DNA from: Chloroflexota bacterium
Lineage (GTDB): Bacteria; Chloroflexota; Dehalococcoidia; Lucifugimonadales; GCA-002723415
Reading direction: 5' to 3'
Length of the DNA: 64,000 nt
Assembly: GCA_002721445.1 (NCBI GenBank)
Contig: PBKN01000007.1
Location: forward strand, 75,211 to 139,210
Position numbers and translations under genes: made by a program. Below, piece by piece: positions 6,452 through 56,629 of this stretch; within the stretch, counting starts at the first letter, position 1; the number at the start of each line of letters is the position of its first letter. A model generated the notes under the pieces. The model did not search any database and had not been told where the DNA came from. It was given only the letters and a program-made list of their open reading frames with translations.

Positions 6452-7543
6452 TCAGCGTGATTGAGAAATTGCTTCTTTAAATGAATCAAAAATTTTAGTT
6501 ACACTTTGATTTAAAACTGTAACGTTAATATTTAGTCTAATTTTGTTTGATTGTATTTCATCTTGATTTAATAATATAGACTTGTTTTCTAGATTCTTTA
6601 TAAATGATTGTAAGTTTATATCAGAATCTAATTTTACTAAATAAACATTCGAACCATTTTCAATTGTTTCAATATTTAATTGAGGTAGTGTATTTAATTT
6701 GATTAATAATTCTTTGGAATTACTTATCGAATGTTTAAATTTTTTTTGGAATTCTTCAACTCCATTTAATGTAGCAATAGCAGCTATATTAGCTGAGTGC
6801 ATACTGCCTCCAAACATCCTTCGGTCATGATGTAGTCCATCTATTAAATTTTTATCACCTGCAAGTATTGCCCCAAAAGGAGATCCAAAGTATTTATATA
6901 GTGAAATATAAACTGAATCAAACATTTGGGAGTAAGCTTTAATATCTATTTTTGTTATTGCAGACATTATAAATAGCCTTGCTCCATCCATATGTATAGG
7001 TATTGATTTAGATTTACAATAGTTTGAAATAGATTCAAGATGTTTAAATGGGACTATTTGACCATATTTACGCCTAACAGGACTTTCTAAGCTAACTGCT
7101 CCAACAGGATTATGCGCTCGTGTATTATTTAGTTCATGTAAATAATTTTCTAATTCTTTCAATGTAAAATAGGATTTATTTTTACCTAAAGGAGTTAATT
7201 TTATACCGCTTAGCCTACTTAAACTATCTCCTGAATCATGGTAAATATGACTTTGCTCTTGGACAACAACATTTTGTTTTGTTCCGCATAATTTTCTAAT
7301 AGCTAAATGATTTGCTAAAGTGCCAGTAGGAAAAAACATAGCATCTTCTTTACCTAAAATATCTGCAAATGTATTCTCTAATATTGAAACTGCACCACCT
7401 ATACTATAATCATCTTTTTGGTAATTATTTTTATTTAAGATTTCAAAATTTGAAAAAGTATTTATAGATGTTTTATGATCGCTATCACCTATGAAAGTAA
7501 CAATATGGTCTGTTTTATTTTGTTTACTATTGTTAGAATTAAT
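6452..7543 (-). CDS. Threonine aldolase-like / beta-eliminating lyase family PLP enzyme, putative ATT start
   Basis: GKEDAMFFPTGTLAN, HMDGARLF and SLYKYFG (PLP Lys) motifs. The frame is open to TAA 7555-7553 and the homologous N-terminal 68 codons lie upstream of the first ATG (7339). The only plausible start is ATT 7543-7541, 6 nt after AAGGA (7554-7550). Confidence 0.7.
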   Translation of the reverse strand: MNSNNSKQNKTDHIVTFIGDSDHKTSINTFSNFEILNKNNYQKDDYSIGGAVSILENTFADILGKEDAMFFPTGTLANHLAIRKLCGTKQNVVVQEQSHIYHDSGDSLSRLSGIKLTPLGKNKSYFTLKELENYLHELNNTRAHNPVGAVSLESPVRRKYGQIVPFKHLESISNYCKSKSIPIHMDGARLFIMSAITKIDIKAYSQMFDSVYISLYKYFGSPFGAILAGDKNLIDGLHHDRRMFGGSMHSANIAAIATLNGVEEFQKKFKHSISNSKELLIKLNTLPQLNIETIENGSNVYLVKLDSDINLQSFIKNLENKSILLNQDEIQSNKIRLNINVTVLNQSVTKIFDSFKEAISQSR

Positions 7544-7700
7544 TTTAAATCCTTATGATTAGATCGTATTTTTTAAATAAATATAAATTTGGAATATATT
7601 TTTGGGATGTTATTATTATGTTTTTCTTATGTCAAGTATAGGCATTAATTAAAAAATACTAATATTTAATTAAGGTTAAAGATAATAATAGGATTAGAAT

Positions 7701-28711: not shown

Positions 28712-28733
28712 TTAATCATTATAGGCATATAAA

Positions 28734-29501
28734 ATTACTAGAATAGCTTTATTAATAGAATATGATGGTACTAATTTTTCTGGATTTCAGATTCAGAATC
28801 ATAAGAGTTCTATTCAAGGTGAATTAGAAGAAGCTATAAAAGAATTTACAGGTCAAAAAACTAGGATTAAATATGCAGGTAGAACTGATAGTGGAGTACA
28901 TGCAGAAGGACAGGTGATTTCCTTTGATTCTAAAGTTGATAGAGATTTAAGACAATATATAGAAGGAATTAATTATTATTTACCAGAATCTATTGCAGTA
29001 AAAGAAGTTAATGTGATGTTAGATCACTTTGACCCTAGAAAGCATGCTTTAAGTCGTACTTATAGATATAACATTATTAACAGTGAAAAGCGTTATCCTT
29101 TATTAAATAGGTCACATTTTAGAGTTGTAAATAAATTGAATATATCAAAAATTAATGAATCAATTAATTTGTTCGTTGGGGAACATGATTTTAAACAATT
29201 TTCTGGGCCATTACCAAAAGGAATAAATACATACAGAGAAATTTTAGATATTTGCGTTTCAAAAGAGCAAAATGTGGTACAATTTATAGTTAAAGGTAAA
29301 TCTTTTTTGAGAAGACAAGTTAGGAGAATGGTTGGAACATTAGTCGATATTGGTTTAGATAAGGTTTCTTATGATCAATTGAAATCATTTTTGGATTGTT
29401 CAAATAAACCTATAGTTTATACTACATTGCCTCCACAAGGATTATGCCTTGTAAATGTTGAATATCCAGATATATTTTATAAAAATGGTGAAAAGATATG
29501 A
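28734..29501 (+). CDS. truA: tRNA pseudouridine(38-40) synthase TruA, putative ATT start
   Basis: In-frame upstream of the track start (GTG 28914) I read IALLIEYDGTNFSGFQIQ...KYAGRTDSGVHAEGQV, the conserved N-terminus including the catalytic Asp. The frame opens after TAG 28722-28724 and has no ATG/GTG/TTG before 28914. ATT 28734 gives a 255-aa protein. Confidence 0.75.
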   Translation: MTRIALLIEYDGTNFSGFQIQNHKSSIQGELEEAIKEFTGQKTRIKYAGRTDSGVHAEGQVISFDSKVDRDLRQYIEGINYYLPESIAVKEVNVMLDHFDPRKHALSRTYRYNIINSEKRYPLLNRSHFRVVNKLNISKINESINLFVGEHDFKQFSGPLPKGINTYREILDICVSKEQNVVQFIVKGKSFLRRQVRRMVGTLVDIGLDKVSYDQLKSFLDCSNKPIVYTTLPPQGLCLVNVEYPDIFYKNGEKI

Positions 29502-31489: not shown

Positions 31490-32140
31490 CTAATTAGAAT
31501 TATTTAATTGAATTAGTTGAACTAATTGCCAACGGTCATAATCAGTTAAAAGACGACCAAATTCAGGCATTATTGCTTGTGGCCATTTACCTCTTTTACG
31601 AGAGCTATAACCTTGTCTTCCTCCAGCAGATATATATGCAAATAATTCCGTATCAGTATATTTTTGAATAGTTAAATTAGGGGGTAGAGGACTTTTATCT
31701 CCATAAAAGGCTAATATTTTAGCTTGGTATTTGGGGTCAGATTCATCTATACCTTTAAAAGTAGATCCATGACAAACTAAACAGTTTATATTGTATATAT
31801 GTTCAGCTTTTTCTTTGTCATAAATATCTTTAGGCATAGTTATTTGAGAATTTTCTGAAATATCCATTGTCAAATAATCTAAACTAGCTCCAGTTATTGG
31901 TACAGAGTTTTTTGGAGGTAATAACCTAGGAATTTCTTGACTTCTATACGATGGCTGGAAATGCATTTCAGTAAATGCCTCAACTCTATGGCTACCTGTT
32001 TCCATAAGTGCAGGTTGTTCAAATTTAATTGACTCCCCAATTTTTACTTCACCTGTTTTTGAATTATAGCAAGATACAAATAATATAATTGAAAATAAAG
32101 ATATAATTATAAGAGATGTGCTATTAAAGTCTTTAAACAT
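31490..32140 (-). CDS. actE: ACIII monoheme cytochrome c subunit ActE-like (lipoprotein signal)
   Basis: Single CLVCH heme motif, N-terminal signal ending in lipobox-like FVSC, last gene of the act cluster. Confidence 0.7.
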   Translation of the reverse strand: MFKDFNSTSLIIISLFSIILFVSCYNSKTGEVKIGESIKFEQPALMETGSHRVEAFTEMHFQPSYRSQEIPRLLPPKNSVPITGASLDYLTMDISENSQITMPKDIYDKEKAEHIYNINCLVCHGSTFKGIDESDPKYQAKILAFYGDKSPLPPNLTIQKYTDTELFAYISAGGRQGYSSRKRGKWPQAIMPEFGRLLTDYDRWQLVQLIQLNNSN

Positions 32141-32144
32141 TAAA

Positions 32145-32654
32145 TTATTCCCAACCTCGTTTTATATCTTCTGCACCAATATTTTTTAATATTTTTTCAG
32201 CTTCTTCAATTTTATCTTCACTTGTAGTGACAGTAACCCCTATATATCCTTCAGTAATTCGTGTGTCATATGCGCCCATAAATATTCTAGGTAATCTAGA
32301 TTCAAATACTACTCCAATAATTGTAAATATAATTGCTCCAAGCATAGTTCCTTCATACATTATTATTGCCATTGGAGGGACACCTAATACAGGCTTACCA
32401 CCTGTAACTAGAGGATAGGCTACTTGAGTGCCTGCAGTAATCATAAATCCCATTATAAATCCACATACAGCACCAAATAATGGCCACCTATAAAGTTTAT
32501 GCTTAGGTTCATCTTCTCCAAATGTTCCTTCAGGGTAAGGTAGGCCAGTTAATACTTCATATTCATCCATTTCATAACCAGCTTTTCTTAAGTCATCTAG
32601 CGCATCTGCAGCTAAATTTTCATCTAAAAATAATCCTATAATACTACGTTTCAT
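32145..32654 (-). CDS. actD: ACIII subunit ActD-like (DUF3341-type membrane protein)
   Basis: 169 aa, soluble N-terminal part (LAADALDDLRKAGY) followed by two hydrophobic segments. Positioned between the NrfD-like and cytochrome c genes. Confidence 0.65.
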   Translation of the reverse strand: MKRSIIGLFLDENLAADALDDLRKAGYEMDEYEVLTGLPYPEGTFGEDEPKHKLYRWPLFGAVCGFIMGFMITAGTQVAYPLVTGGKPVLGVPPMAIIMYEGTMLGAIIFTIIGVVFESRLPRIFMGAYDTRITEGYIGVTVTTSEDKIEEAEKILKNIGAEDIKRGWE

Positions 32655-32663
32655 ATTAATTCC

Positions 32664-34037
32664 TCATTCTCTGATAGACGCAGGAACTGTTCTGCGTCCA
32701 ATTTTAATTTCGTCTCTAAAGACCATTCCTTCTTTAATATCAAAAAGAGGTATTAAAGGAAAGAATTTAGAAAATAATAATAATCCAAAAATTACGAAAG
32801 CAAATGTTTCGGTTACAATTAATATCTCAACTATACTTGGTGTATAGCTACCCCAGTCAAATGCAAATGGGGTTTTACGAGATAAACTTGGTACAATAAT
32901 TAAAAATCTTTCAAGCCACATTCCTACGTTCACTAATATAGTACTTATAAACATTAATGGAAGACTACGACGTACATTTTTAAACATCCACATTGGCACA
33001 GGAATAAAATAAGATGTAAGTAGGAATAATATAAATAGACCTGAAAAAGGCCATTTAAAAAATTGCAACTCCCTTAGAGCAATTTCAGGCCTCTCTAAAG
33101 TGAACAAGGCAAAAGCTACTTCTAAAAATAAAAATAGAAACCATGTAGTAGCTACTATTATTAATAATCTTCCAATTGCATCTAGATGGTCAGGTCTTAA
33201 TATTTTATCATTCCCTTTCCATACCCACATCATTACTACCATGAAAGTAGCAACCGCAGATACTCCTGAATGAATTGCTCCAATAATAAAATATGGTGCA
33301 AATATTGTAGAATGCCAACCTTCAACTCCAGCAATTACAGCGAAATCCCATGAAACTATGCTATGAACTGATACAAATACCGGAAGTACTAAGGCAGATA
33401 ATAAAATACCTACAATTGTTTGCATTTTCCATTGCCTAGGAGTCCCTCTCCAACCAAGACATAGAATTCCATATATTTTACTTCTTAATCCTGTTGTTCT
33501 ATCTCTAATTATTGCTAAATCGGGTAATAAACATATTATTACAAATAATGTACTTGCAATTAGATATGTTCCTACCGCACTAGGATCCCAAACAAAAGGA
33601 GATCTAACATTTGGCCATACACCTCTACTAAAATCATATGGAAATACCCAGTAAGTTCTCCAAGGCCTACCTACGTGGAATAAGGGAGTATGAAGGGCTG
33701 CCATTAATGAGAATACAGTGAGCACTTCAGCAGCTCTAGTTATTGGTCTTCTCCATTCTGCTTGAGTTAGTCTTAATATAGCTGAAATCATTATTCCTGC
33801 ATGGCTGATTCCAATCCAAAACACAAAATTAACTATAAAAAATCCCCAGAAAACAGGCCTGTTAAGACCTGTAACTCCTAGGCCGTGGTAAACCATATAA
33901 AAGAAAGCAGCTAACCCCGTGACAATAAATCCAAAAGTAATTAAAACAGCCGGAAGCCACCATTTAGGAGTTTCCAGAATTGGCGATAGAGATATATCGT
34001 TAATTTCTTTTTGGTTAAGCTGTATGTGTTCCTGCAT
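32664..34037 (-). CDS. actC: ACIII NrfD/PsrC-like quinol-interacting membrane subunit (ActC-like)
   Basis: 457 aa polytopic protein with classic NrfD-type blocks WGFFIVNFVFWIGISHAGIMISAILRL..WRRPITRAAE..HVGRPWR. Confidence 0.75.
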   Translation of the reverse strand: MQEHIQLNQKEINDISLSPILETPKWWLPAVLITFGFIVTGLAAFFYMVYHGLGVTGLNRPVFWGFFIVNFVFWIGISHAGIMISAILRLTQAEWRRPITRAAEVLTVFSLMAALHTPLFHVGRPWRTYWVFPYDFSRGVWPNVRSPFVWDPSAVGTYLIASTLFVIICLLPDLAIIRDRTTGLRSKIYGILCLGWRGTPRQWKMQTIVGILLSALVLPVFVSVHSIVSWDFAVIAGVEGWHSTIFAPYFIIGAIHSGVSAVATFMVVMMWVWKGNDKILRPDHLDAIGRLLIIVATTWFLFLFLEVAFALFTLERPEIALRELQFFKWPFSGLFILFLLTSYFIPVPMWMFKNVRRSLPLMFISTILVNVGMWLERFLIIVPSLSRKTPFAFDWGSYTPSIVEILIVTETFAFVIFGLLLFSKFFPLIPLFDIKEGMVFRDEIKIGRRTVPASIRE

Positions 34038-34086
34038 ATTTTTCTCTTTTACATATTAATTATTATAATGTTTTTTTATCAATATT

Positions 34087-35499
34087 TTAATCAGGTTTTC
34101 CTAATATTTTAACTTCTGTTCGATGGAATTTTTTGTGTATTTCATACATAACTACTTCTCTTTGTTCCCATATATTTATTACTGGTATTATTTTTGTAGC
34201 AAGCATAAATACTAATATAGATCCTGAAATGTATCCAAGCATAATAAAAACATCAGATATTTCTGGTAAATGAGTAGGTAAAGAATGAGTAGGTAATGCA
34301 TGCTTAGAAACATTTGGATCACCAATTCCAGGTACGGAATACGCAGCTACATATAGTCTAATTCTATCTAGGAAAGTACCAATAATAACTCCAACTGCTA
34401 TTAATGGAGGACCCCAAAAACTTCGTCTAATTGGATTCCAAATCATCATAAAAAGAGGGAAAACAAAATTTAATAAAAATACACCTATAAAAATTATTAA
34501 ATATGGTCCAGTTGTAAGTAGATCTATAACTGATAATTCATTAGGTTTTTTACCATACCAAAATACATTGAAACTAGAAAACCAAAACCAAAACCATAGT
34601 AATGATAAAGCAAATAATAATTTGCCTAGACCCCAAACTTGATCGTATCCGATATAATCTTTATATCCTCCAAATTTTCTTAAACAAAACATAGTTAACA
34701 TCATTGTAGCCACACCTGCTTGTAATGCATTAGCAGCGTGAGTTATGGGAAGAAGTGCATCTATCCATCCAGGGACAAGAACAAGTAGAAAATCTATACT
34801 TATCAAAAAATGGACAAAAACCATCATTGCAAAATATAATGCACCTAATATACCTAATCTATGGTAAAGCCAATGCCATTGCTTAGAAGTGCCTATCCAA
34901 TTTTTAGATAATTTTTTTGCAACCTTTTGTTGCCATCCTGTACCTTTATCACGAATTAATGCTAAATCAGGTAATGCAGAAAGCCATAGAAGCATAATGC
35001 CAATAAAAACTAATGAGCACAATGCTAATGTAGTCCAAATATGTGGAGAAAATACTGGTACACTTTCAAACCCAGGAGCTGCATCCCAAAACCATAATGA
35101 CCTTCGCCTATCTTCAAGACTTGGTAGCACCCACAATATTGGAATAAATAATATTAAATTAAATAAACCAACTATTGACCATATTTCTGCTGTACGAGAT
35201 ATAGGTCTCCTCCAATGTGCCTTAGCAAGCCTTGGAGCTATAGCAACCATAGGTGCTGCCTGTGCAGTTGTTAATATAAATGCAAACATTGCAGCATAGT
35301 AACCCCATATAACTTTGTCGTTGAAACCAGAGTTTAATTTCATGACAAATCCAATAATTCCTAAAATAAAGAATACAGCTAATAATGAAATAATGCGCCA
35401 AAAATAATTCCCATTTCTCTGGTGCCTCTCAAGAAGAGTATTATTAATTTTAGATTTCTTATCTAATGTTGATTTAGCTGTAATCACATGAGGATTCAT
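34087..35499 (-). CDS. actF: Second, more divergent NrfD-like membrane subunit (ActF-like)
   Basis: 470 aa polytopic protein; HWRRPISRTAEIW parallels the ActC motif but the rest is divergent. The ActF assignment rests on divergence and context only. Confidence 0.6.
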   Translation of the reverse strand: MNPHVITAKSTLDKKSKINNTLLERHQRNGNYFWRIISLLAVFFILGIIGFVMKLNSGFNDKVIWGYYAAMFAFILTTAQAAPMVAIAPRLAKAHWRRPISRTAEIWSIVGLFNLILFIPILWVLPSLEDRRRSLWFWDAAPGFESVPVFSPHIWTTLALCSLVFIGIMLLWLSALPDLALIRDKGTGWQQKVAKKLSKNWIGTSKQWHWLYHRLGILGALYFAMMVFVHFLISIDFLLVLVPGWIDALLPITHAANALQAGVATMMLTMFCLRKFGGYKDYIGYDQVWGLGKLLFALSLLWFWFWFSSFNVFWYGKKPNELSVIDLLTTGPYLIIFIGVFLLNFVFPLFMMIWNPIRRSFWGPPLIAVGVIIGTFLDRIRLYVAAYSVPGIGDPNVSKHALPTHSLPTHLPEISDVFIMLGYISGSILVFMLATKIIPVINIWEQREVVMYEIHKKFHRTEVKILGKPD

Positions 35500-35536
35500 T
35501 ATTTTATATTTTTTCCTATTTTATTTGATAAATTTA

Positions 35537-36322
35537 TTAATGTTTTTCAACTGTTTTAGATTCGTAGTCAACCTTTTTCAAATACACAACACTTGGGTGA
35601 GTTCCATATTCTTCTAATAAATGATATCCACGTTTTTCATCATGCTCTTCGTGGCCATCATGATCAGAGTGATCTCCATGTCCTCCATGTCCTAGTTCTT
35701 TTTTCTTCATTTTAGATACTTTACTTTCAGGGTTATTAAAATCACCGAAAACAAGAGCATCAGTAGCACAACCGTTTACACAGGCAGGATTTAATTGTCG
35801 ATCGCCATCTTTAATACTGGTATTATTCTTTTCAGATTCTCTTTTTGTACGCTGTATTCTTTGAACGCAGAAAGTACATTTTTCCATTATTCCGCGTGTT
35901 CTTACAGTAACATCTGGATTAAGTTGATTTTCTAATGAATCGGGCCATTCAGGTTCCCAAAAATTAAAATGTCTTACTTGGTAAGGACATCCATTAGCGC
36001 AGAATCTTGTACCTATACATCTATTATATACTTGAACATTCAATCCTTGGTCATTATGATATGTTGCATAGACAGGACATACAGGTTCACATGGTGCATC
36101 AGCACAATGCTGGCATAATACAGGAATAAATCTAGCTTTTACATTGGGGAATTCTCCTTCCCAATATCTTTCAATTCTAATCCATTGGATAGGTCTTCTC
36201 TGAGTAAAATGGTCTTCTTCATTAATAGGTATATTGTTTTCTGATTGACAAGCAATAACACAAGCATTACATCCCGTACATTTATCATTATCAATAACCA
36301 TTCCCCAACTTGGATTTGCCAT
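35537..36322 (-). CDS. actB: ACIII iron-sulfur subunit (ActB2, 4-cluster ferredoxin-like) with His-rich C-terminal segment
   Basis: CTGCNACVIAC, CQHCADAPCEPVCP, CIGTRFCANGCPY and CTFC...CVNGC cysteine clusters; GHGGHGDHSDHDGHEEHDE segment. Confidence 0.75.
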   Translation of the reverse strand: MANPSWGMVIDNDKCTGCNACVIACQSENNIPINEEDHFTQRRPIQWIRIERYWEGEFPNVKARFIPVLCQHCADAPCEPVCPVYATYHNDQGLNVQVYNRCIGTRFCANGCPYQVRHFNFWEPEWPDSLENQLNPDVTVRTRGIMEKCTFCVQRIQRTKRESEKNNTSIKDGDRQLNPACVNGCATDALVFGDFNNPESKVSKMKKKELGHGGHGDHSDHDGHEEHDEKRGYHLLEEYGTHPSVVYLKKVDYESKTVEKH

Positions 36323-36340
36323 TATAATCTCCCTTTAATA

Positions 36341-38680
36341 TTATGTGTCATATCTCGTGATTTTAATTATATGTTGCTCGTAATCTGTAGGAAATTCAGA
36401 TACATCATTTTCAAATTTAGGTAAACGCCTCCATTTACCTGTATTAGTTATGTTAACTTTAGTAGAGGCCCAAGCAAGTGCACCTGATGTTTTTACATTT
36501 AATGGTGCAAGTATTGATAATATATTTGCACCTCTTTTTTCTGAAAACCTGCCTCCACCTAAATGTCCTTGTCCTAATGGAACGCATATTACGTCAGTAG
36601 GGGTTCCTGGATTAGGATAAGCTATAGCTTCAATGTTCCCAAAATTTGAAGCTATTCTAATTATATCGCCTTCTTTAATATTCATATCTTTTGCAACTTT
36701 TGCGTTAATTTCTGCCCATGTTTTCCAGACAGCAGTTGACATTGTGTCAGGCAAGGCTTGTAGCCAAGGTAATGAAGAATTTCCTATTCCATTTCTTAAC
36801 CCGTATGATTCAAAAGGTATGAGATAAAACTCTTTATTTGGATTTTCACTACTAGAGAAGTTAGGTTCTTCAATTAGATTGTCAAACTGAGGTAATTTAT
36901 GTGATTTTTTATTTTTATATTTTGAATTTGTGTCTTGCCAGAATCCATGTTGTAAAACTGAATTCCAGAAAGATTCAAAACTTGCGAAATCTTTAGTATT
37001 TTTTAATCCCACAGTTCCTTTACCACTATCAAATAAGTTTTTAGCTTTAGATTTAATTATAGATAGATAGTCTTCTTCTTCAAAATTAGTATTAAGATTA
37101 AGATTAGGGTCTTTCGATATAGATAATAAGATATTGGGAAAACTTTTTGTACCTAAATATTCTCCTCTGTTTTCAAAAAAAGGCCTTACAACTGGTTGCT
37201 GGAAAGCGACTATTTCATGACCAGGAGCAGGGTTAGGAGTATTTATACCCCAGTCTTCTAAAAAGTGATGAGGAGGTAAAATTAAATCTGACATATATCC
37301 AATGTCATCCATAATTGTTGAAAAGCTAACTATTAAAGAAGTATTTGATATTCCATTATTTCCTTCAATTATTGCATCTTTAAACCCAGCACTGTCAGGT
37401 AATCCATACCATGGATCTGAGCCATAATTTAATAGTATTTTTACATCACCATTATTCATTTTTTTGATTAATTCATTCCAGTCAGAGAAACTTGTCTCTG
37501 TTTGTCTCAAATCAGATATATTAACTGGATCTGGGTTTAATATTACTCCACCTTTATTATTGACAGACCCTATTAAATAATTTAATAAATATATATTTTT
37601 TAGATTAAACAAACCATTTGTACTTGCTGCTGTAGATCCTCCGCCTATTACTAAAGGATTATTATGACTAGCTAGTTCTTTAGCAATTTTAGTAATTTTA
37701 TTTATTACTTCCTCAGTATTTTGACTAGGATCAGATATTTTGCTGGCTATTAATGAAGGTGCAAATTGGTCTAGGTAAGTTAAATCATTATTAGTAAGGT
37801 TGTTTATTATTTGAGTATCAGCAAGGCCCTCAGATATTATTACCTGAGCTATACTTAAAGCCAAAATCCCTTCAGTCCCAGGTTTTGTGTAAATCCATTC
37901 ATCTGCATTAGCTGCAGTAGATGAAAATCTTGATTCCACTTGGACTAAATATCCTCTTGTTTTATTTCCTTGACGGAATTGGCCATAAGCTTTTGCATAT
38001 TCAGTAGGAGAAATCCATGTGCTAAGAAAATCAGACCCAAAAGACACAATGTAATCAGAATTTGCTATATCAAATTTAGGAATTTTTTTATCGCCAAATA
38101 TGACTTGAAAAGCATTCTTAAGTGTTGTTTGTTCTAAAGGTTCATGAATAACGTGATTTCCTCCAAAACTAGTAGTGAAATTTGAAACTATTGAGTTGAT
38201 TTGGGAATTAAGAGGCTTTGTTGCAAAAACCATTTTTGAACTTTCCCCAGAATCTTTGAGTTTTTTTAATTCCGAACTAAGTCGGTCTATAGCGTTGTCC
38301 CAGCTTATTTCTTCAAATTTTCCTTCTCCTCTGTTTCCTACGCGTAATAGAGGACCTTTTATTCTGTCAGGATGATATAAAGATTGTAAAGAAGCTTCAC
38401 AAACTGCACTATGCTTTCCTTCATTAATTGGGAAATCAACATTACCTTCTATTTTCTTTGCTCTCCCTTCCATTATACGAACAATTAGCCCATTAGAAAC
38501 TGGAGAGTTTGCGTCAGTAGTTGCATACCAATTATCTAAGCCGGAAACCATATCTTCAGGCATTTCATAAGATGATTCTACCAAAAGTTCTTCAGGCGGA
38601 ACCCCACAGGCTTGAAATAGTACAGCAGCACCAGTAGAACCCCCAATAAGTGTTAGAAATTGTCTTCTAGTTAGTCCCAT
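36341..38680 (-). CDS. actB: ACIII molybdopterin-oxidoreductase-like subunit (ActB1) with Tat signal
   Basis: Twin-arginine signal MGLTRRQFLTLIGG; 779 aa CISM-family fold. No CxxCx3C FS0 motif visible after the signal, as expected for cofactor-less ActB1. Confidence 0.75.
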   Translation of the reverse strand: MGLTRRQFLTLIGGSTGAAVLFQACGVPPEELLVESSYEMPEDMVSGLDNWYATTDANSPVSNGLIVRIMEGRAKKIEGNVDFPINEGKHSAVCEASLQSLYHPDRIKGPLLRVGNRGEGKFEEISWDNAIDRLSSELKKLKDSGESSKMVFATKPLNSQINSIVSNFTTSFGGNHVIHEPLEQTTLKNAFQVIFGDKKIPKFDIANSDYIVSFGSDFLSTWISPTEYAKAYGQFRQGNKTRGYLVQVESRFSSTAANADEWIYTKPGTEGILALSIAQVIISEGLADTQIINNLTNNDLTYLDQFAPSLIASKISDPSQNTEEVINKITKIAKELASHNNPLVIGGGSTAASTNGLFNLKNIYLLNYLIGSVNNKGGVILNPDPVNISDLRQTETSFSDWNELIKKMNNGDVKILLNYGSDPWYGLPDSAGFKDAIIEGNNGISNTSLIVSFSTIMDDIGYMSDLILPPHHFLEDWGINTPNPAPGHEIVAFQQPVVRPFFENRGEYLGTKSFPNILLSISKDPNLNLNTNFEEEDYLSIIKSKAKNLFDSGKGTVGLKNTKDFASFESFWNSVLQHGFWQDTNSKYKNKKSHKLPQFDNLIEEPNFSSSENPNKEFYLIPFESYGLRNGIGNSSLPWLQALPDTMSTAVWKTWAEINAKVAKDMNIKEGDIIRIASNFGNIEAIAYPNPGTPTDVICVPLGQGHLGGGRFSEKRGANILSILAPLNVKTSGALAWASTKVNITNTGKWRRLPKFENDVSEFPTDYEQHIIKITRYDT

Positions 38681-38717
38681 ATTTATTTAATTTCTACCTC
38701 TTTAAACTTCTTAAATT

Positions 38718-39413
38718 TTAATAATGGCAAGTTGTACAATCCGTAGGTCCATTGTTTTCTCTGTGGCAATCTACACAGTCACTCATTTTAAGAGTTCTTA
38801 CTTGTTCAACTTTATGCATTTTTGATACATCTCCATGACATATAGAACATGTGCCTGATGCAGCAATATCAAGAGTTTCTCCAATTTTTGCATTAGGGTT
38901 AATAACTTTAGCTTCTATTATACGAATTTGATTACTACTGTCAGTTATCTTTTCTACTACTTGCCTTGAACCCGAAAATCTTTTTACATGAGCTTCATGA
39001 ATAAATCTTACATGGTCAGGCATTCTATGTACTCTTGTCCATTGAATTACATCTTGTTTAGCATGTATATCTCTAAGCTTTTCAATTTCAGTACTTCCGT
39101 CTCCTAATTGCGTATGACATGACATACATAGGTTGACAGCTGGAATGGAAGCAGATGCTCCCTTAGTAACATTTGTATGGCAAAATGTACAATCTAAACC
39201 AAGTTCTTGAACGTGAACAGTATGAGGAAATGCTATAGGTTGATCCGGGGCTTCAGCAGCAAAAATAACTGGCTTATCAATCCATGAAGATATATGAAAA
39301 GTAGCTAACAATGCAACACCTATAAATATTACAAAACCTATAAAACCTATAACACCAAATAATATCAACTTATTTTTTGGGGGTTTATAAAACTGAAAAT
39401 CGCCTGGTATCAA
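38718..39413 (-). CDS. actA: ACIII pentaheme cytochrome c subunit ActA
   Basis: N-terminal TM anchor and five CxxCH motifs (CTFCH, CMSCH, CSICH, CVDCH, CTTCH). TTG start 7 nt after AAGGA. Confidence 0.8.
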   Translation of the reverse strand: MIPGDFQFYKPPKNKLILFGVIGFIGFVIFIGVALLATFHISSWIDKPVIFAAEAPDQPIAFPHTVHVQELGLDCTFCHTNVTKGASASIPAVNLCMSCHTQLGDGSTEIEKLRDIHAKQDVIQWTRVHRMPDHVRFIHEAHVKRFSGSRQVVEKITDSSNQIRIIEAKVINPNAKIGETLDIAASGTCSICHGDVSKMHKVEQVRTLKMSDCVDCHRENNGPTDCTTCHY

Positions 39414-39446
39414 ATTGTAATTCCTTTTTTTATTTAAATTTAGACT

Positions 39447-52874: not shown

Positions 52875-55121
52875 CTAAATTAGGTTTTCAGGTTCTATTT
52901 TTTCAGGTTCTATTATTGTTAAATTTTTCAAATCTGGTTTATTAAGAAAAATACTAAATAGCCTTCCTGACGAACCGATCCATGACCTTTCTATTATTTC
53001 TGTTTTCTTGATTAGTGGTTGATTATTTATTCTAAGTCGAGGGATATCCTTAATATTTTTTATTGATATACTAGATTTATTAAATTTAAACTTAATATTT
53101 TCTAATTCTTGTATACTTAATTCTTTTCCTTTAATTATGTCTTTGTAAACCAACCTCAGTATTTTATTTCTTTTAAGTTTTGAGAAATCGATCAGTAGTT
53201 TATTTTTGTCATCATATATATAGCCAAAAGGTGCATTTCTTGTTTTAAAATAAATTAAAAATAATAAACTAATAATAATTAATATTATCGCTATAAATAA
53301 TATTGTGTTTAATATGTTCTCATTCTTTGATGATTTAATTTCAATATTATTTATAGGGTTTGTTGTAGGCAATACAGAATTAGATTCTAATCCTAAAATT
53401 GTTGGAGTCGGAACTATTGGTGAGTATAGAGTAGGCGGTATAGATGATATTAATATATATTCTGATCTGTACTTATATTCTTCTCCAGCGTATTTTATAT
53501 TCATACTAAAATTTACAGTATATGTTCCTTCCCCGTAAGGAGTAAAATAAATGTAAAATTCAGAAGCAGTATTTCCAGATATATTTTCTGGAATTATTTC
53601 AATTAACCCAGATTCTTTAATATTAGAATTTATTGTGAATAAAAGTTCCTCTGAAGGTATACTGTATGGAATACCTTCAATATTAATTAGTAATTCTGCT
53701 ACTTTGACACGAGAATTTAATGAAAGATTTTTACTCTCTATAGATGTAATATTGATTGAAGGAAATGGCTTTGTTATTATTTCAGACTTAGATGTAATCA
53801 TATGACCTGATTCGAGCCAATTAATATCTAAGTCTACAAAATGTATTCCTGTTTGGTTTAATGAAGGAATAGTAGCTGAAAAATATCCATCGTTAGCTAC
53901 AGCATCTCCAGTTTTAGCTTTATCATTTAACTCATATATTAATTCTGTTTTTGATTCAGTAGTTATCTTCGCAATTATTTGTATTTTTTCTAATGTAATC
54001 GGTGTATTTTTATCAGCTACATATGCAATTAAAGTAATAGGTTTATTATTAGGAAATGGTCCTTTAGTCGATAATATTGGCCTTAAGTCATTACTTGAAA
54101 AATAGTAAATTAATAAATCACCATCATAATTATTCACTTCTAATTCCCATTTTCCTGCTTCTGGATTTTCTATTTCCCATATATTTATATGAGGGGTATC
54201 AATAGTATAAAAATTTATTTTATCTAAGTTATTTCCATTTAGGTTATCAGATGATTTATTTATTTTAATTGTGCCATCAATATCTTCTTTAAATATCCAG
54301 ATGTTAGTTTTGGTTGTTCCAGGAGCTATAGTGAATTCTTTACTAAATGTTTGATTAGATTTCAATTTTTCATTTAATAATTCAGAAAATGAAAAATTAG
54401 GGTTGGAGTCAAATGTATTTTTAAACAGTGTATTTAATGAATATACATCAATTAAATCTAGTTTTTCCCCACTTGTTCTGTTTGATAAATCAGACAAAAA
54501 TTTATCAGCACTTATTGTATTTTCATTACTTGAACTTATATCACTGGAGTTAGAGGGTAGTTCAAATGAATTTATTTCCCATTGATTATTAGATAATAAA
54601 TTTAATGTTGGGTTTATGTTGTCTATATTGGGGAATGATTTTTCCCCTCCAGAAATCAATAAAATTTTTGAGCTATCAGCTGCCGAATTTATATTAAGCA
54701 GGTTGTATGATTTTATTAAAGCCGATTCAAAATCAGGTTCTAATTTTTTATAATAAGTTATTTTTTCTATAGATGAATTATATTGTCTTATTTCTTCTAA
54801 TATATATTGATAATTAATTTCAATCTTTGATTTATCTTTTGATAAAAAAGAATTTGTTGATTTTTCTGGATTGTCAGCTGGTATAAAATATAAGGACGTA
54901 TTTTCTTCAATTTCCGATACCATGCCAATTAATGATTGTAATAAATTTGAACCTTCTACTTCATTATCTATCAAAGCTTGGCGGTCTATAATAAAGATTA
55001 TATATTTATTTGTGTTATCCTCATAGGCAACAACTACTTGACTAATAAATAAAGTAAATAGGATTATTAGTAATGCTGAAATACTAGTTTGGATGACTCT
55101 ACTAATGCTCATTAAATACAC
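52875..55121 (-). CDS. Large single-pass membrane protein of unknown function (VWA-like N-domain, Ig-like repeats, TM, FHA-like cytoplasmic tail suspected)
   Basis: 748 aa. N-terminal signal/anchor; YIIFIIDRQ...ILLISGGE (VWA-like, MIDAS absent); TGDAVANDGYFSATIP motif; TM ILNTILFIAIILIIISLLFLIYF near residue 610; about 130-aa C-terminal tail. Confidence 0.7.
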   Translation of the reverse strand: MYLMSISRVIQTSISALLIILFTLFISQVVVAYEDNTNKYIIFIIDRQALIDNEVEGSNLLQSLIGMVSEIEENTSLYFIPADNPEKSTNSFLSKDKSKIEINYQYILEEIRQYNSSIEKITYYKKLEPDFESALIKSYNLLNINSAADSSKILLISGGEKSFPNIDNINPTLNLLSNNQWEINSFELPSNSSDISSSNENTISADKFLSDLSNRTSGEKLDLIDVYSLNTLFKNTFDSNPNFSFSELLNEKLKSNQTFSKEFTIAPGTTKTNIWIFKEDIDGTIKINKSSDNLNGNNLDKINFYTIDTPHINIWEIENPEAGKWELEVNNYDGDLLIYYFSSNDLRPILSTKGPFPNNKPITLIAYVADKNTPITLEKIQIIAKITTESKTELIYELNDKAKTGDAVANDGYFSATIPSLNQTGIHFVDLDINWLESGHMITSKSEIITKPFPSINITSIESKNLSLNSRVKVAELLINIEGIPYSIPSEELLFTINSNIKESGLIEIIPENISGNTASEFYIYFTPYGEGTYTVNFSMNIKYAGEEYKYRSEYILISSIPPTLYSPIVPTPTILGLESNSVLPTTNPINNIEIKSSKNENILNTILFIAIILIIISLLFLIYFKTRNAPFGYIYDDKNKLLIDFSKLKRNKILRLVYKDIIKGKELSIQELENIKFKFNKSSISIKNIKDIPRLRINNQPLIKKTEIIERSWIGSSGRLFSIFLNKPDLKNLTIIEPEKIEPENLI

Positions 55122-55217: not shown

Positions 55218-55583
55218 ATGGAGACTCAATTGTTTATTAAAAATATTAAAAGAAGTAGAAAAGAACTTATTACTCTTTTCCTATTTTTAACTATAGTCAG
55301 TATGTTTAATATAAATTGCAGCAAATTATTCCAGAACCAAATAGATGATAAACATATGACTAGAGGTTTAATTCAAGAAGTAAAATCAGATTCATTAAAA
55401 AATTATGATTTTTTTATTCTTAAAGATATTAATAATAAGGAATTTGTTTTTGTACAAGGGAATTCAAATATAATTGGCTTTTCACCTTCTCACCTTAGAG
55501 AGCATATGCTGTTTGGTTTACCAGTCACTGTTGAATATTATATATATGAGGATAGATATATTGTAATTAATTTATATGATTAA
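55218..55583 (+). CDS. Hypothetical small exported/anchored protein
   Basis: 121-aa ORF with an N-terminal hydrophobic segment (LITLFLFLTIVSMF). No family recognised. Confidence 0.5.
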   Translation: METQLFIKNIKRSRKELITLFLFLTIVSMFNINCSKLFQNQIDDKHMTRGLIQEVKSDSLKNYDFFILKDINNKEFVFVQGNSNIIGFSPSHLREHMLFGLPVTVEYYIYEDRYIVINLYD

Positions 55584-55586
55584 AGT

Positions 55587-56117
55587 TTATTTTTTTGTTT
55601 TGTACGTTTGACTCCAAATATACAATGATCCAGATATTAATATTGCAAATGTAATTGGGAAAACTAATGAGGCAGTTTGAGACGGTAATGGGACTCCAGC
55701 TATGTACATTGGGAAGGTTATTTCAGTTTCTTTATTGTTTGCTTTTATATTTAATATTATTTCCCAATCACCAGGGTAATCGAAGGTAATATTTGCTGAA
55801 TAAATTTTTTGATTATTAGGCTGATTTAATGCTAAAACTTGATAAGCTTCGGCGGATTCTGTATGTTTAGCTATTAATGTAATTATTGCATCAGAGGGGT
55901 AAGTTTCTAGGGTTGTGTCATAGGGTATTATAGAAAAATGAATAATTCCTATTTGTATTTTTTCAGGTAATATTTTAATTTTTACATCAAAATCATCCGC
56001 CTTACCTGAATATATTGTAGTACCTTCACTGCTATATAAGTAATTTTCTGAATCTACATATATATATAATATTATACTTAATAAAAAAAATAGATATAAA
56101 AATTTAGTAAAAATAAT
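55587..56117 (-). CDS. Hypothetical exported/membrane protein not in the ORF track; putative ATT start (FixH/YtkA-like Ig-fold suspected)
   Basis: I hand-checked all 177 triplets: no stop between TAA 56123-56121 and TAA 55589-55587. GGAG (56128-56125) lies 7 nt before ATT 56117. Translation: IIFTKFLYLFFLLSIILYIYVDSENY...DWEIILNIKANNKETEITFPMYIAGVPLPSQTASLVFPITFAILISGSLYIWSQTYKTKK. Confidence 0.6.
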   Translation of the reverse strand: MIFTKFLYLFFLLSIILYIYVDSENYLYSSEGTTIYSGKADDFDVKIKILPEKIQIGIIHFSIIPYDTTLETYPSDAIITLIAKHTESAEAYQVLALNQPNNQKIYSANITFDYPGDWEIILNIKANNKETEITFPMYIAGVPLPSQTASLVFPITFAILISGSLYIWSQTYKTKK

Positions 56118-56185
56118 AAATTATCTCCTGAATTTTAACTTAATATATACATATTATATTATATTAGAATTATTACTTAAACTTT

Positions 56186-56214
56186 TTGACATCAATATAG
56201 CCTGATGATAAAAT
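56186..56214 (+). promoter_or_regulatory. Predicted sigma70-type promoter for the zinc-ribbon gene/dtd pair
   Basis: TTGACA (56186-56191), 17-nt spacer ending TGa, TAAAAT (56209-56214), 50 nt upstream of TTG 56264. Confidence 0.5.
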
Positions 56215-56263
56215 TTAGACTAATTTTAGTTTTTTTTAGATTCTTTCGTTAGGAGTAAATATT

Positions 56264-56629
56264 TTGCCAAAGTATGATTATAAATGTACTGTTTGCAATC
56301 ATATGTTTGAAATTTCACAGAGTTTTTCATCTGAACCTATTTCTGATTGCCCAGAATGTTCTAGTTTAGCTAAACGTCAATTTCAAGTTGTTCCTATAGT
56401 ATTTAAAGGTAGTGGATTTTATGTTAATGATTATGGGAAAAAAGGTTCTACTTCAACTAGTAGCAATTCAGATAACTCTAATAACGAAACTTCTGAAACA
56501 AAAAAACCTAATAAAGATAACCAAAATGATAATTCTGGAAAATCAAATACCAAGGCTAAAAAAGAAAAACCAATTTCTGATTCTAAGCAAAATATAACTA
56601 CTAATTCAACTAATAAAGAAATTAATTGA
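56264..56629 (+). CDS. FmdB-family (CxxC_CxxC_SSSS) zinc-ribbon protein with long Ser/Asn/Lys-rich tail
   Basis: MPKYDYKCTVCNHMFE...DCPECSS; TTG start after AGGAG. Confidence 0.8.
   Translation: MPKYDYKCTVCNHMFEISQSFSSEPISDCPECSSLAKRQFQVVPIVFKGSGFYVNDYGKKGSTSTSSNSDNSNNETSETKKPNKDNQNDNSGKSNTKAKKEKPISDSKQNITTNSTNKEIN

Follow-up and report, generated by a model that had tools for sequence, protein, structure and literature searches.

A conserved gene for a YtkA-like envelope protein with a putative ATT start in an apparent intergenic gap of a marine Chloroflexota bacterium

We analyzed a 64,000-nucleotide stretch of DNA (hereafter, the window) from contig PBKN01000007.1 (positions 75,211 to 139,210) of the Chloroflexota bacterium assembly GCA_002721445.1, in which an apparent gap of 680 nt, where the sole listed ATG/GTG/TTG open reading frame (ORF) is one of 40 amino acids (aa) at 55587-55709, contains a minus-strand coding sequence for a 176-residue YtkA-like protein (55587..56117). 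This sequence, recognized from its open frame and its orthologues, ends at the TAA at 55589-55587 and would start at the ATT at 56117-56115 or, alternatively, at the ATT at 56114-56112. Considering all the evidence jointly, we regard it as likely that this is a functional, ATT-started gene for a YtkA-like envelope protein, in which the ATT start is probably secondary; a metal-related role is a more tentative suggestion.

A conserved protein-coding gene in the apparent gap

The original prediction placed a frame of 177 open codons on the minus strand of the gap, and the translation of window positions 55587-56135 bears this out: 177 sense codons (55587-56120) are bounded by TAA at 56123-56121 and TAA at 55589-55587, and the translation reads KFRR*FIIFTKF...KTKK*, that is, the upstream stop followed by FIIFTKFLYLFF...SQTYKTKK*. 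The segments quoted with that prediction, FLYLFFLLSIILYIY, ASLVFPITFAILISGSLYIW and KTKK, are all present. The only in-frame canonical codons are an ATG, corresponding to residue 137, and a TTG at 55625, corresponding to residue 165. The local GC content of the gap is 25%, and none of 2000 dinucleotide shuffles of its 680 nt produced a run of 177 codons, the longest being 133. The length of the frame by itself is nevertheless a hint and not proof of a gene, because an equally long run turned up somewhere in 3 of 100 shuffles when the entire 64-kb window was shuffled; it is the comparative evidence that decides. An Rfam scan of 55400-56400 at E<=1 returned a chance microRNA match only, with no RNA element that would account for the gap.

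A search of 5.8 billion predicted proteins yielded three homologues of the window protein (71-81% identity), all of which reach far upstream of the internal ATG. The contigs of these three homologues, one genome match and three metagenome matches supplied the loci designated L001-L008, so that four lineages were compared: the window together with L006, an independent Tara assembly 98% identical to it; L002/L003; L001/L007; and L005/L008 plus L004, the L005/L008 lineage including the metagenome-assembled genome (MAG) "Chloroflexota bacterium SP196" (PBOA01000005). Orthologues from the three other marine Chloroflexota lineages, with identities of 70-82%, span the entire frame, and, as far as the contigs extend, loci L001-L008 share the same gene order, which includes a Zn-ribbon gene, dtd, the convergent gene for a protein of ~120 aa, a gene for a protein of ~745 aa, and a transketolase-family/Dxs-like gene.

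The check for purifying selection upstream of the ATG at 55709 that had been proposed with the original prediction was positive. The ratio of nonsynonymous to synonymous substitution rates (dN/dS), estimated by the Nei-Gojobori method over the ~108 codons upstream of this ATG, is 0.18 between the window and L002, 0.09 between the window and L001, and 0.16 between the window and L005, within a range of 0.09-0.25 for this part; for the whole gene, the values among orthologues are 0.14-0.26. Stops or frameshifts in the frame would have spoken against a gene. The window and L002 sequences, neither of which has a canonical start, differ by a synonymous divergence (dS) of 0.48 with zero stops or frameshifts; 6.25% of the single-base changes in this ORF create a stop, and the neutral expectation over this divergence is ~16 new stops, the probability of observing none being ~1e-7. 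Because full-length orthologues in conserved synteny evolve under purifying selection, window positions 55587-56117 are, on this comparative evidence, a real, conserved protein-coding gene, and a pseudogene or a chance ORF is practically excluded.

One locus of the L005/L008 lineage stands apart. L004:380-860 encodes the same protein as L005/L008, and its upstream region diverges exactly at the GGAG and carries a different upstream gene, reflecting either a real rearrangement or an assembly chimera. Given the disagreement with L005/L008 from the GGAG onward, the coverage of 2.4x and the possible chimerism, the L004 upstream region was left out of the comparisons that follow.

Start of translation and its history

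The sequence preceding the gene in the window reads ...TAA TAT GTA TAT ATT AAG TTA AAA TTC AGG AGA TAA, followed by TTT ATT ATT TTT ACT AAA. Direct reading confirms the GGAG at 56128-56125 proposed originally, with the ATT codons at 56117 and 56114 located 7 and 10 nt downstream, respectively; the GGAG is part of a putative Shine-Dalgarno (SD) sequence AGGAG (56125..56129, minus strand). An in-frame TAA (56121..56123, minus strand) closes the frame directly upstream of the adjacent in-frame ATT pair (56112..56117, minus strand), and all three reading frames are closed by stops just upstream of 56121. Because of these closed frames and of the lack of an ATG, GTG or TTG before residue 137, the ATT pair holds the only usable initiation codons and appears to be the only start in the window that would retain the full protein with its conserved N-terminal signal; either ATT is a candidate. 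Frameshifting or readthrough from an upstream ATG was considered and ruled out, given that the three frames are closed before 56121 and a second main-frame TAA is found 11 codons further up.

The spacing fits the habits of the window, in which GGAG precedes canonical starts by 5-10 nt, most often by 7, the distance that separates it from ATT 56117, and about half of the genes have an SD core 4-11 nt upstream of their first canonical start. The upstream sequence of L006 is identical to that of the window (TAA TTT ATT ATT), and L002 and L003, independent assemblies from the sister lineage, both read AGG AGA TGA TTT ATT ATT. The start-less layout shared with L002/L003 thus predates the split from the window lineage and is not an assembly error. 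All four lineages have ATT at the 56114 position, the 56117 position reads ATT, ATT, ATA and ATA, and GGAGA is retained in all of them (as AGGAGA in three and TGGAGA in one). In remote family members, this position is always occupied by a methionine followed by an n-region and a hydrophobic core, and only the ATT pair gives a comparable N-terminus in the window. The TTG from which a gene caller starts the L002 product P0001 (162 aa) falls within the hydrophobic core, so that a start there would truncate the signal peptide, and the window has TTA at this place. The proposal of a GGAG-preceded ATT start is therefore supported by the ATT pair being the sole option in the window and by the same layout in L002/L003, initiation itself being inferred.

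The two more distant lineages point to the history of this start. L001/L007 and L005/L008 have an in-frame ATG 12 codons (MYINSKIWRLLIINIKF...) and 11 codons (MLSKNYRRRIIIFKIF...), respectively, upstream of the conserved ATT, and the two ATGs fall at different aligned positions. In the window, an out-of-frame ATG TAT ATA TTA AGT TAA (MYILS*; 56135..56152, minus strand) is, by comparison with the L001 and L005 upstream regions, a probable relic of the ATG start that is in frame in L001/L007 (MYINSK...); by our own reading of the alignment, the ATG at 56152 probably aligns with that of L001. In the simplest scenario, indels and a stop would have separated an ancestral ATG from the gene in the window/L002 clade, the former Arg-Arg codons would now act as the SD sequence for ATT, and the ribosome would start at ATT 56117 or 56114, 7 and 10 nt after the strong AGGAG. 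Since the initiator tRNA pairs poorly with AUU, the protein would probably be made at a low level. The ATT start is, as far as the upstream sequences tell, shown to be necessary only in the window/L002 clade, where it may be a derived, secondary rescue.

Several observations weigh against an ATT start. The upstream ATGs of the distant lineages offer a canonical alternative there, and in these lineages conservation of GGAGA and ATT could reflect coding for Arg-Arg and Ile, AGGAGA or TGGAGA encoding Arg-Arg or Trp-Arg wherever an upstream ATG is present. A simple promoter scan upstream of the gene on the minus strand found no promoter, and the comparative depth is small, with only four lineages known. 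A TATAAT read by hand just before the relic ATG was too uncertain and was not used.

Initiation at a downstream ATA (codon 17, 18 or 21 of the ATT-started protein), with the signal shortened or absent, appears unlikely: ATA can initiate in some bacteria, for instance, in Staphylococcus aureus infC and ccpN (PMC13009471), and these codons are in frame, but they lack a preceding SD-like motif and fall within the hydrophobic core kept by every family member, and the AGGAG is placed for the ATT pair. We consider it very unlikely that the gene is a decaying pseudogene that lost its ancestral ATG through a point change and indels and is otherwise undamaged so far. The in-frame upstream ATG of the two distant lineages, the out-of-frame ATG followed by a stop in the window, and the fact that no caller gave a full-length product for the window species, only the 69-aa P0004, would fit such decay; the window and L002, however, share the start-less layout across a dS of 0.48, with the dN/dS of 0.18 and intact frames where some 16 stops would be expected. 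A sequencing or assembly error hiding a normal start is highly improbable; in its favor are the AT-richness, low complexity and homopolymer runs of the region and the discordant upstream sequence of the low-coverage L004, but the independent L006 has exactly the same 5' sequence and L002 and L003 agree with each other. Expression of the 40-codon ATG ORF (55587-55709) alone, as a small membrane peptide, can practically be dismissed even though the gap offers no other canonical ORF, given that the upstream 136 codons are conserved with low dN/dS and encode a confidently predicted domain common to more than 100 relatives, and that the internal ATG is replaced by ATA (FPISIAG) in L001.

On the opposite strand, a near-consensus promoter at 56186-56214 (plus strand), consisting of TTGACA, a 17-nt spacer and a TG-extended TAAAAT (11 of 12 matches), precedes the divergent Zn-ribbon (FmdB-type) gene at 56264. 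The block CATGTCAAAAAG, which is conserved across lineages upstream of the YtkA-like gene, is explained by the -35/-10 elements of this divergent gene, in particular by its -35 region.

The encoded protein, its family and its possible role

The 176-residue product is a predicted envelope protein in which an eight-strand beta-sandwich sits between a signal or anchor at the N-terminus and a membrane helix at the C-terminus, an assignment much firmer than that of its function. Kyte-Doolittle values in 19-residue windows exceed 1.6 for residues 1-24 and 148-169. The N-terminal hydrophobic segment, a putative signal peptide or signal anchor (residues 1-26; 56040..56117, minus strand), and the C-terminal transmembrane helix with the basic KTKK tail (residues 148-175; 55593..55676, minus strand) are both indicated by hydropathy, helices of the structural model and conservation in the family. 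The lysine of the n-region and the KTKK tail fit, by the positive-inside rule, a domain outside the cytoplasmic membrane with the basic tail inside. The protein has no Cys anywhere and, therefore, no lipobox Cys. Its predicted tryptic peptides upstream of M137 include IQIGIIHFSIIPYDTTLETYPSDAIITLIAK, HTESAEAYQVLALNQPNNQK and IYSANITFDYPGDWEIILNIK.

A profile built from the four close sequences, searched against 1.84 billion cluster representatives, retrieved 115 proteins at E<=1e-3, of which 44 reached E<=1e-10; almost all are 160-230 aa long. In the 56-member alignment, the proteins have a signal peptide, usually with an AxA-like end, a C-terminal hydrophobic helix and an Arg/Lys-rich tail, and the domain in between carries the motifs P-x-x-P-x-V-G-x-V-H-F, Y-Q-x-x-A-L-N-x-P and Y-x-A-N-I-T-F-x-x-x-G-x-W. 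YtkA-like PF13115 is matched by 47 of the 56 members (best E 2e-8) and, weakly, FixH (PF05751) by nine (best E 5.8e-4); a precomputed PF13115 assignment is available for 14 of 26 large-database matches. The window protein would thus belong to the YtkA-like family transitively, via relatives that match PF13115. This placement is tempered by the results for the protein itself, which has no Pfam match at E<=1 and no NCBIfam match, and does not reach the PF13115 gathering score of 25.9 bits; a phmmer search with it against Protein Data Bank (PDB) sequences gave a chance match only (E 0.97).

An AlphaFold2 model based on a 26-sequence alignment has a mean predicted local distance difference test (pLDDT) score of 88.9 and consists of a helix (residues 2-26), eight strands within residues 33-140 and a second helix (148-175); it replaced a first model from four close sequences (pLDDT 60), which was not used. 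The YtkA-like beta-sandwich (residues 33-140; 55698..56021, minus strand) is defined by this model, the Foldseek results and the Pfam matches of the family. The top Foldseek match in the PDB is Helicobacter pylori CrdA (9ll2/9ll4; E 8e-7, TM score 0.77-0.79 on the target, 107 columns, 21% identity), followed by DUF4426, then by the copper-dependent iron-uptake proteins P19, FetP and FtrA, and then by PmoD. CrdA is also found by the family profile, as the only match in that range among PDB sequences (E 1.4e-3). The structure prediction and Foldseek search suggested with the original prediction thus yield an eight-strand sandwich between two helices with CrdA on top, and, along with the Pfam matches of the relatives, they uphold the earlier view of an exported protein with a FixH/YtkA-type fold.

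Among known PF13115 proteins, CtaK (formerly YtkA), a Bacillus subtilis lipoprotein, is needed alongside Sco for the CuA center of cytochrome caa3; some of its His and Met residues are conserved, its C-terminal tail is rich in His, and H118Y is a null allele (PMC9145763); its role in CuA assembly is documented further (PMC9145763, PMC13344008). The window protein resembles CtaK and the C-terminal domain of YcnJ as a small, membrane-tethered extracytoplasmic beta-sandwich with a conserved His in the domain; unlike the CtaK lipoprotein, the window family is without a lipobox Cys and without conserved Met, and its anchor is a C-terminal transmembrane helix. CrdA, a CopC-like copper-resistance protein, is the closest by both structure and profile; however, it is soluble and periplasmic, without terminal helices. 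Membrane-anchored Ig-like domains linked to oxidase biogenesis are also found in FixH/CcoH (PF05751), where the anchor is N-terminal; here, the likeness is limited to weak matches in a minority of the family and none for the window protein, and no fixGIS/ccoGIS genes are located nearby. An association with ccoG, ccoI or ccoS was not found either, the neighbors being the Zn-ribbon gene, dtd, nadC, nadA and the genes for the 121-aa and 748-aa proteins.

By analogy with these proteins, a tentative possibility is that the protein binds copper (or another metal ion) on the outside of the membrane or hands it over there, for instance, in the maturation of a respiratory oxidase. In the distant relatives L009, L011, L012 and L013, the gene follows that of a 305-323-aa lipoprotein, with a 4-nt overlap in three of these loci; this lipoprotein has a weak YtkA-like match and a thioredoxin-like CxxxxC domain, the latter with thioredoxin/redoxin-like matches below the Pfam cut-offs and an FCxTAxCGP motif, and the pair recalls that of CtaK with Sco/TlpA. 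The metal role has to be weighed against several observations. CrdA binds Cu(I) via the Met-rich loop MMxEMPGMxxMxEM (PMC9182242), whereas the stretch of the family aligned to this loop (profile positions ~85-100) is Met-free. The only near-invariant His of the family, H60, does not vary in the 26-sequence alignment, yet several of the 56 members have another residue there, and no Met is conserved. No copper gene adjoins the YtkA-like gene, and the thioredoxin-like partner of the distant relatives was not found by tblastn in the 64-kb window or the close loci, where only weak matches to the YtkA-like gene itself were returned.

Elsewhere in the window, an alternative complex III-type operon (31490-39446, minus strand) encodes a multiheme cytochrome c, molybdopterin and 4Fe-4S subunits, two NrfD-type subunits, ActD and a cytochrome c. 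This operon suggests an aerobic respiratory chain using c-type cytochromes, and with such respiration the organism probably needs CuA assembly.

Two neighbors accompany the YtkA-like gene over long distances. The convergent gene (55218..55583, plus strand), which adjoins the orthologues as well, encodes a 121-aa protein with a signal or lipoprotein-like N-terminus that is homologous to the 115-aa convergent neighbor in L013, a distant relative (E 4e-15). No similarity was found to the convergent genes of L009/L010, which encode 168-173 aa. The stops of the two convergent genes (55583-55587) are 3 nt apart, and the promoter/terminator scan predicted no hairpin resembling an intrinsic terminator, neither between the two genes nor around their ends. 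The next conserved neighbor, a 748-aa membrane protein (52875..55121, minus strand), has a 742-aa counterpart in L001; in L013, the gene in the corresponding place encodes 724 aa and is homologous to it over the full length (26% identity, E 1e-92). Behind its signal sequence, the 748-aa protein has a large extracytoplasmic region, in which a weak "choice-of-anchor X" motif is recognizable, one membrane helix near residues 605-625 and a conserved cytoplasmic tail of ~100 aa; scans with family models gave no family assignment. The neighborhood of the YtkA-like gene, the ~120-aa convergent gene and the ~730-750-aa membrane protein is conserved down to 24-26% identity, and this conservation from the window to L013 suggests a functional module, in which the YtkA-like protein may work with the 121-aa exported protein and the 748-aa membrane protein.

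Other putative ATT starts and what they mean

Among the ~75 genes in the window, only three frames have a long open stretch before the first canonical codon. In truA (28725-29501, plus strand; start at ATT 28734), no canonical codon occurs before the first conserved strand: the 5' end reads TAG GCA TAT AAA ATT ACT AGA ATA GCT TTA TTA ATA GAA TAT GAT GGT, and a canonical codon, GTG, appears only beyond the catalytic GRTDSGVHA motif. When the protein is read from ATT 28734, its residues 3-239 match positions 2-228 of the equivalog model TIGR00071. The truA genes of L014, L015 and L016 similarly lack a canonical codon before RIALLIEYDG and retain AAA/AAG-ATT with AGG 8-9 nt upstream, the proteins of the four lineages being 74-87% identical to that of the window. 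The third gene (6452-7552, minus strand) encodes a pyridoxal phosphate-dependent threonine-aldolase/Beta_elim_lyase-like protein, in which the alignment with the threonine-aldolase model begins at residue 38 (profile position 22) and an ATG is not reached until residue 69, well within the domain; its likely start is the candidate ATT at 7543, which follows TAAGGA at a distance of 6 nt. As a control, ten other window genes were read stop to stop, and these start at canonical codons; for Adk, L24, L16, MoaD and DAHP synthase, where a full-length model matched, the model begins at the first canonical start or only a few residues away from it. Judging from the truA ATT conserved in four lineages, the lineage demonstrably tolerates ATT starts. 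The infC gene was looked for in the window and was not found.

These genes fare poorly in catalogues. The YtkA-like gene is called elsewhere as 162 aa (from the false TTG), 147 aa (from an internal ATG) or a 69-aa fragment; the latter, P0004, is the only database product near-identical to the gene of the window species and joins an unrelated N-terminus, MHSMLKNKPSK, to residues ~119-176. truA is called short in several lineages, at 193-195 aa, in the JGI, Tara and ENA calls (P0140, from JGI/Tara, P0142 and P0143), with the loss of the catalytic Asp motif, and the L016 call takes as its start a TTG that only substitutes synonymously for another Leu codon. The National Center for Biotechnology Information (NCBI) record for MAG SP196, however, contains a 255-aa truA product, MBN18212.1 (MKINRIALL...), which must come from ATT. 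Hence, the suggestion that automated annotation of this lineage systematically misses or truncates genes holds for truA and the aldolase-like gene, both without canonical starts, and has to be narrowed from all pipelines to ATG/GTG/TTG-only callers. The same point on genes missed by such callers has been made with StORF-Reporter (PMC10682499).

The YtkA-like gene would join two known kinds, the AUU-initiated genes and the genes for YtkA-like envelope proteins. In Escherichia coli, infC and pcnB are initiated at AUU. Other AUU-initiated genes include Borrelia burgdorferi pncA (PMC13398362) and S. aureus cvfC1 (PMC13009471). In S. aureus, Ribo-Ret revealed only four non-canonical sites, in infC, cvfC1, ccpN and citZ, each with an extended SD sequence, and three of these starts tested with reporters had ~10% of the AUG efficiency (PMC13009471). 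The YtkA-like gene is similar in that the near-cognate AUU is the sole usable start after a strong SD sequence at normal spacing, a layout kept in the nearest relatives. It differs in that no regulatory logic, such as autoregulation by initiation factor 3 (IF3), is evident and in that its start seems to have replaced a lost ATG secondarily. The window, moreover, has three genes of this sort within 64 kb, in contrast to the four non-canonical sites found by Ribo-Ret in S. aureus. What is unusual here is that an ATT next to a strong SD sequence has apparently made up for a lost ATG, that this state has lasted long and that ATT starts are so dense locally. From this density one might venture, with less than even confidence, that a streamlined, AT-rich marine Chloroflexota lineage uses AUU starts far more often than model bacteria.

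For the public catalogues of this abundant uncultured marine lineage, the consequence is that an envelope protein gene is absent or truncated and that metabolic reconstructions and pangenome counts are slightly, and systematically, wrong; for the same reason, the JGI, Tara and ENA calls of truA are without their N-terminal third, which is the catalytic part, and scanning from stop to stop combined with homology fixes such missed or truncated calls. If AUU use is indeed frequent, start discrimination in these bacteria would be relaxed, through changes in IF3, the initiator tRNA or the 16S P-site, or AT-biased mutation would erode ATG faster than selection restores it; strong or well-placed SD sites would then rescue translation, and a measurable fraction of genes would be missing or truncated in Prodigal-based catalogues. 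The gene itself indicates that a lost ATG may be tolerated for a long time (dS ~0.5) via an ATT beside a strong ribosome-binding site, and it brings to light a sizeable new YtkA-like subfamily, with more than 100 clusters at 50% identity, a C-terminal anchor and two conserved partner genes.

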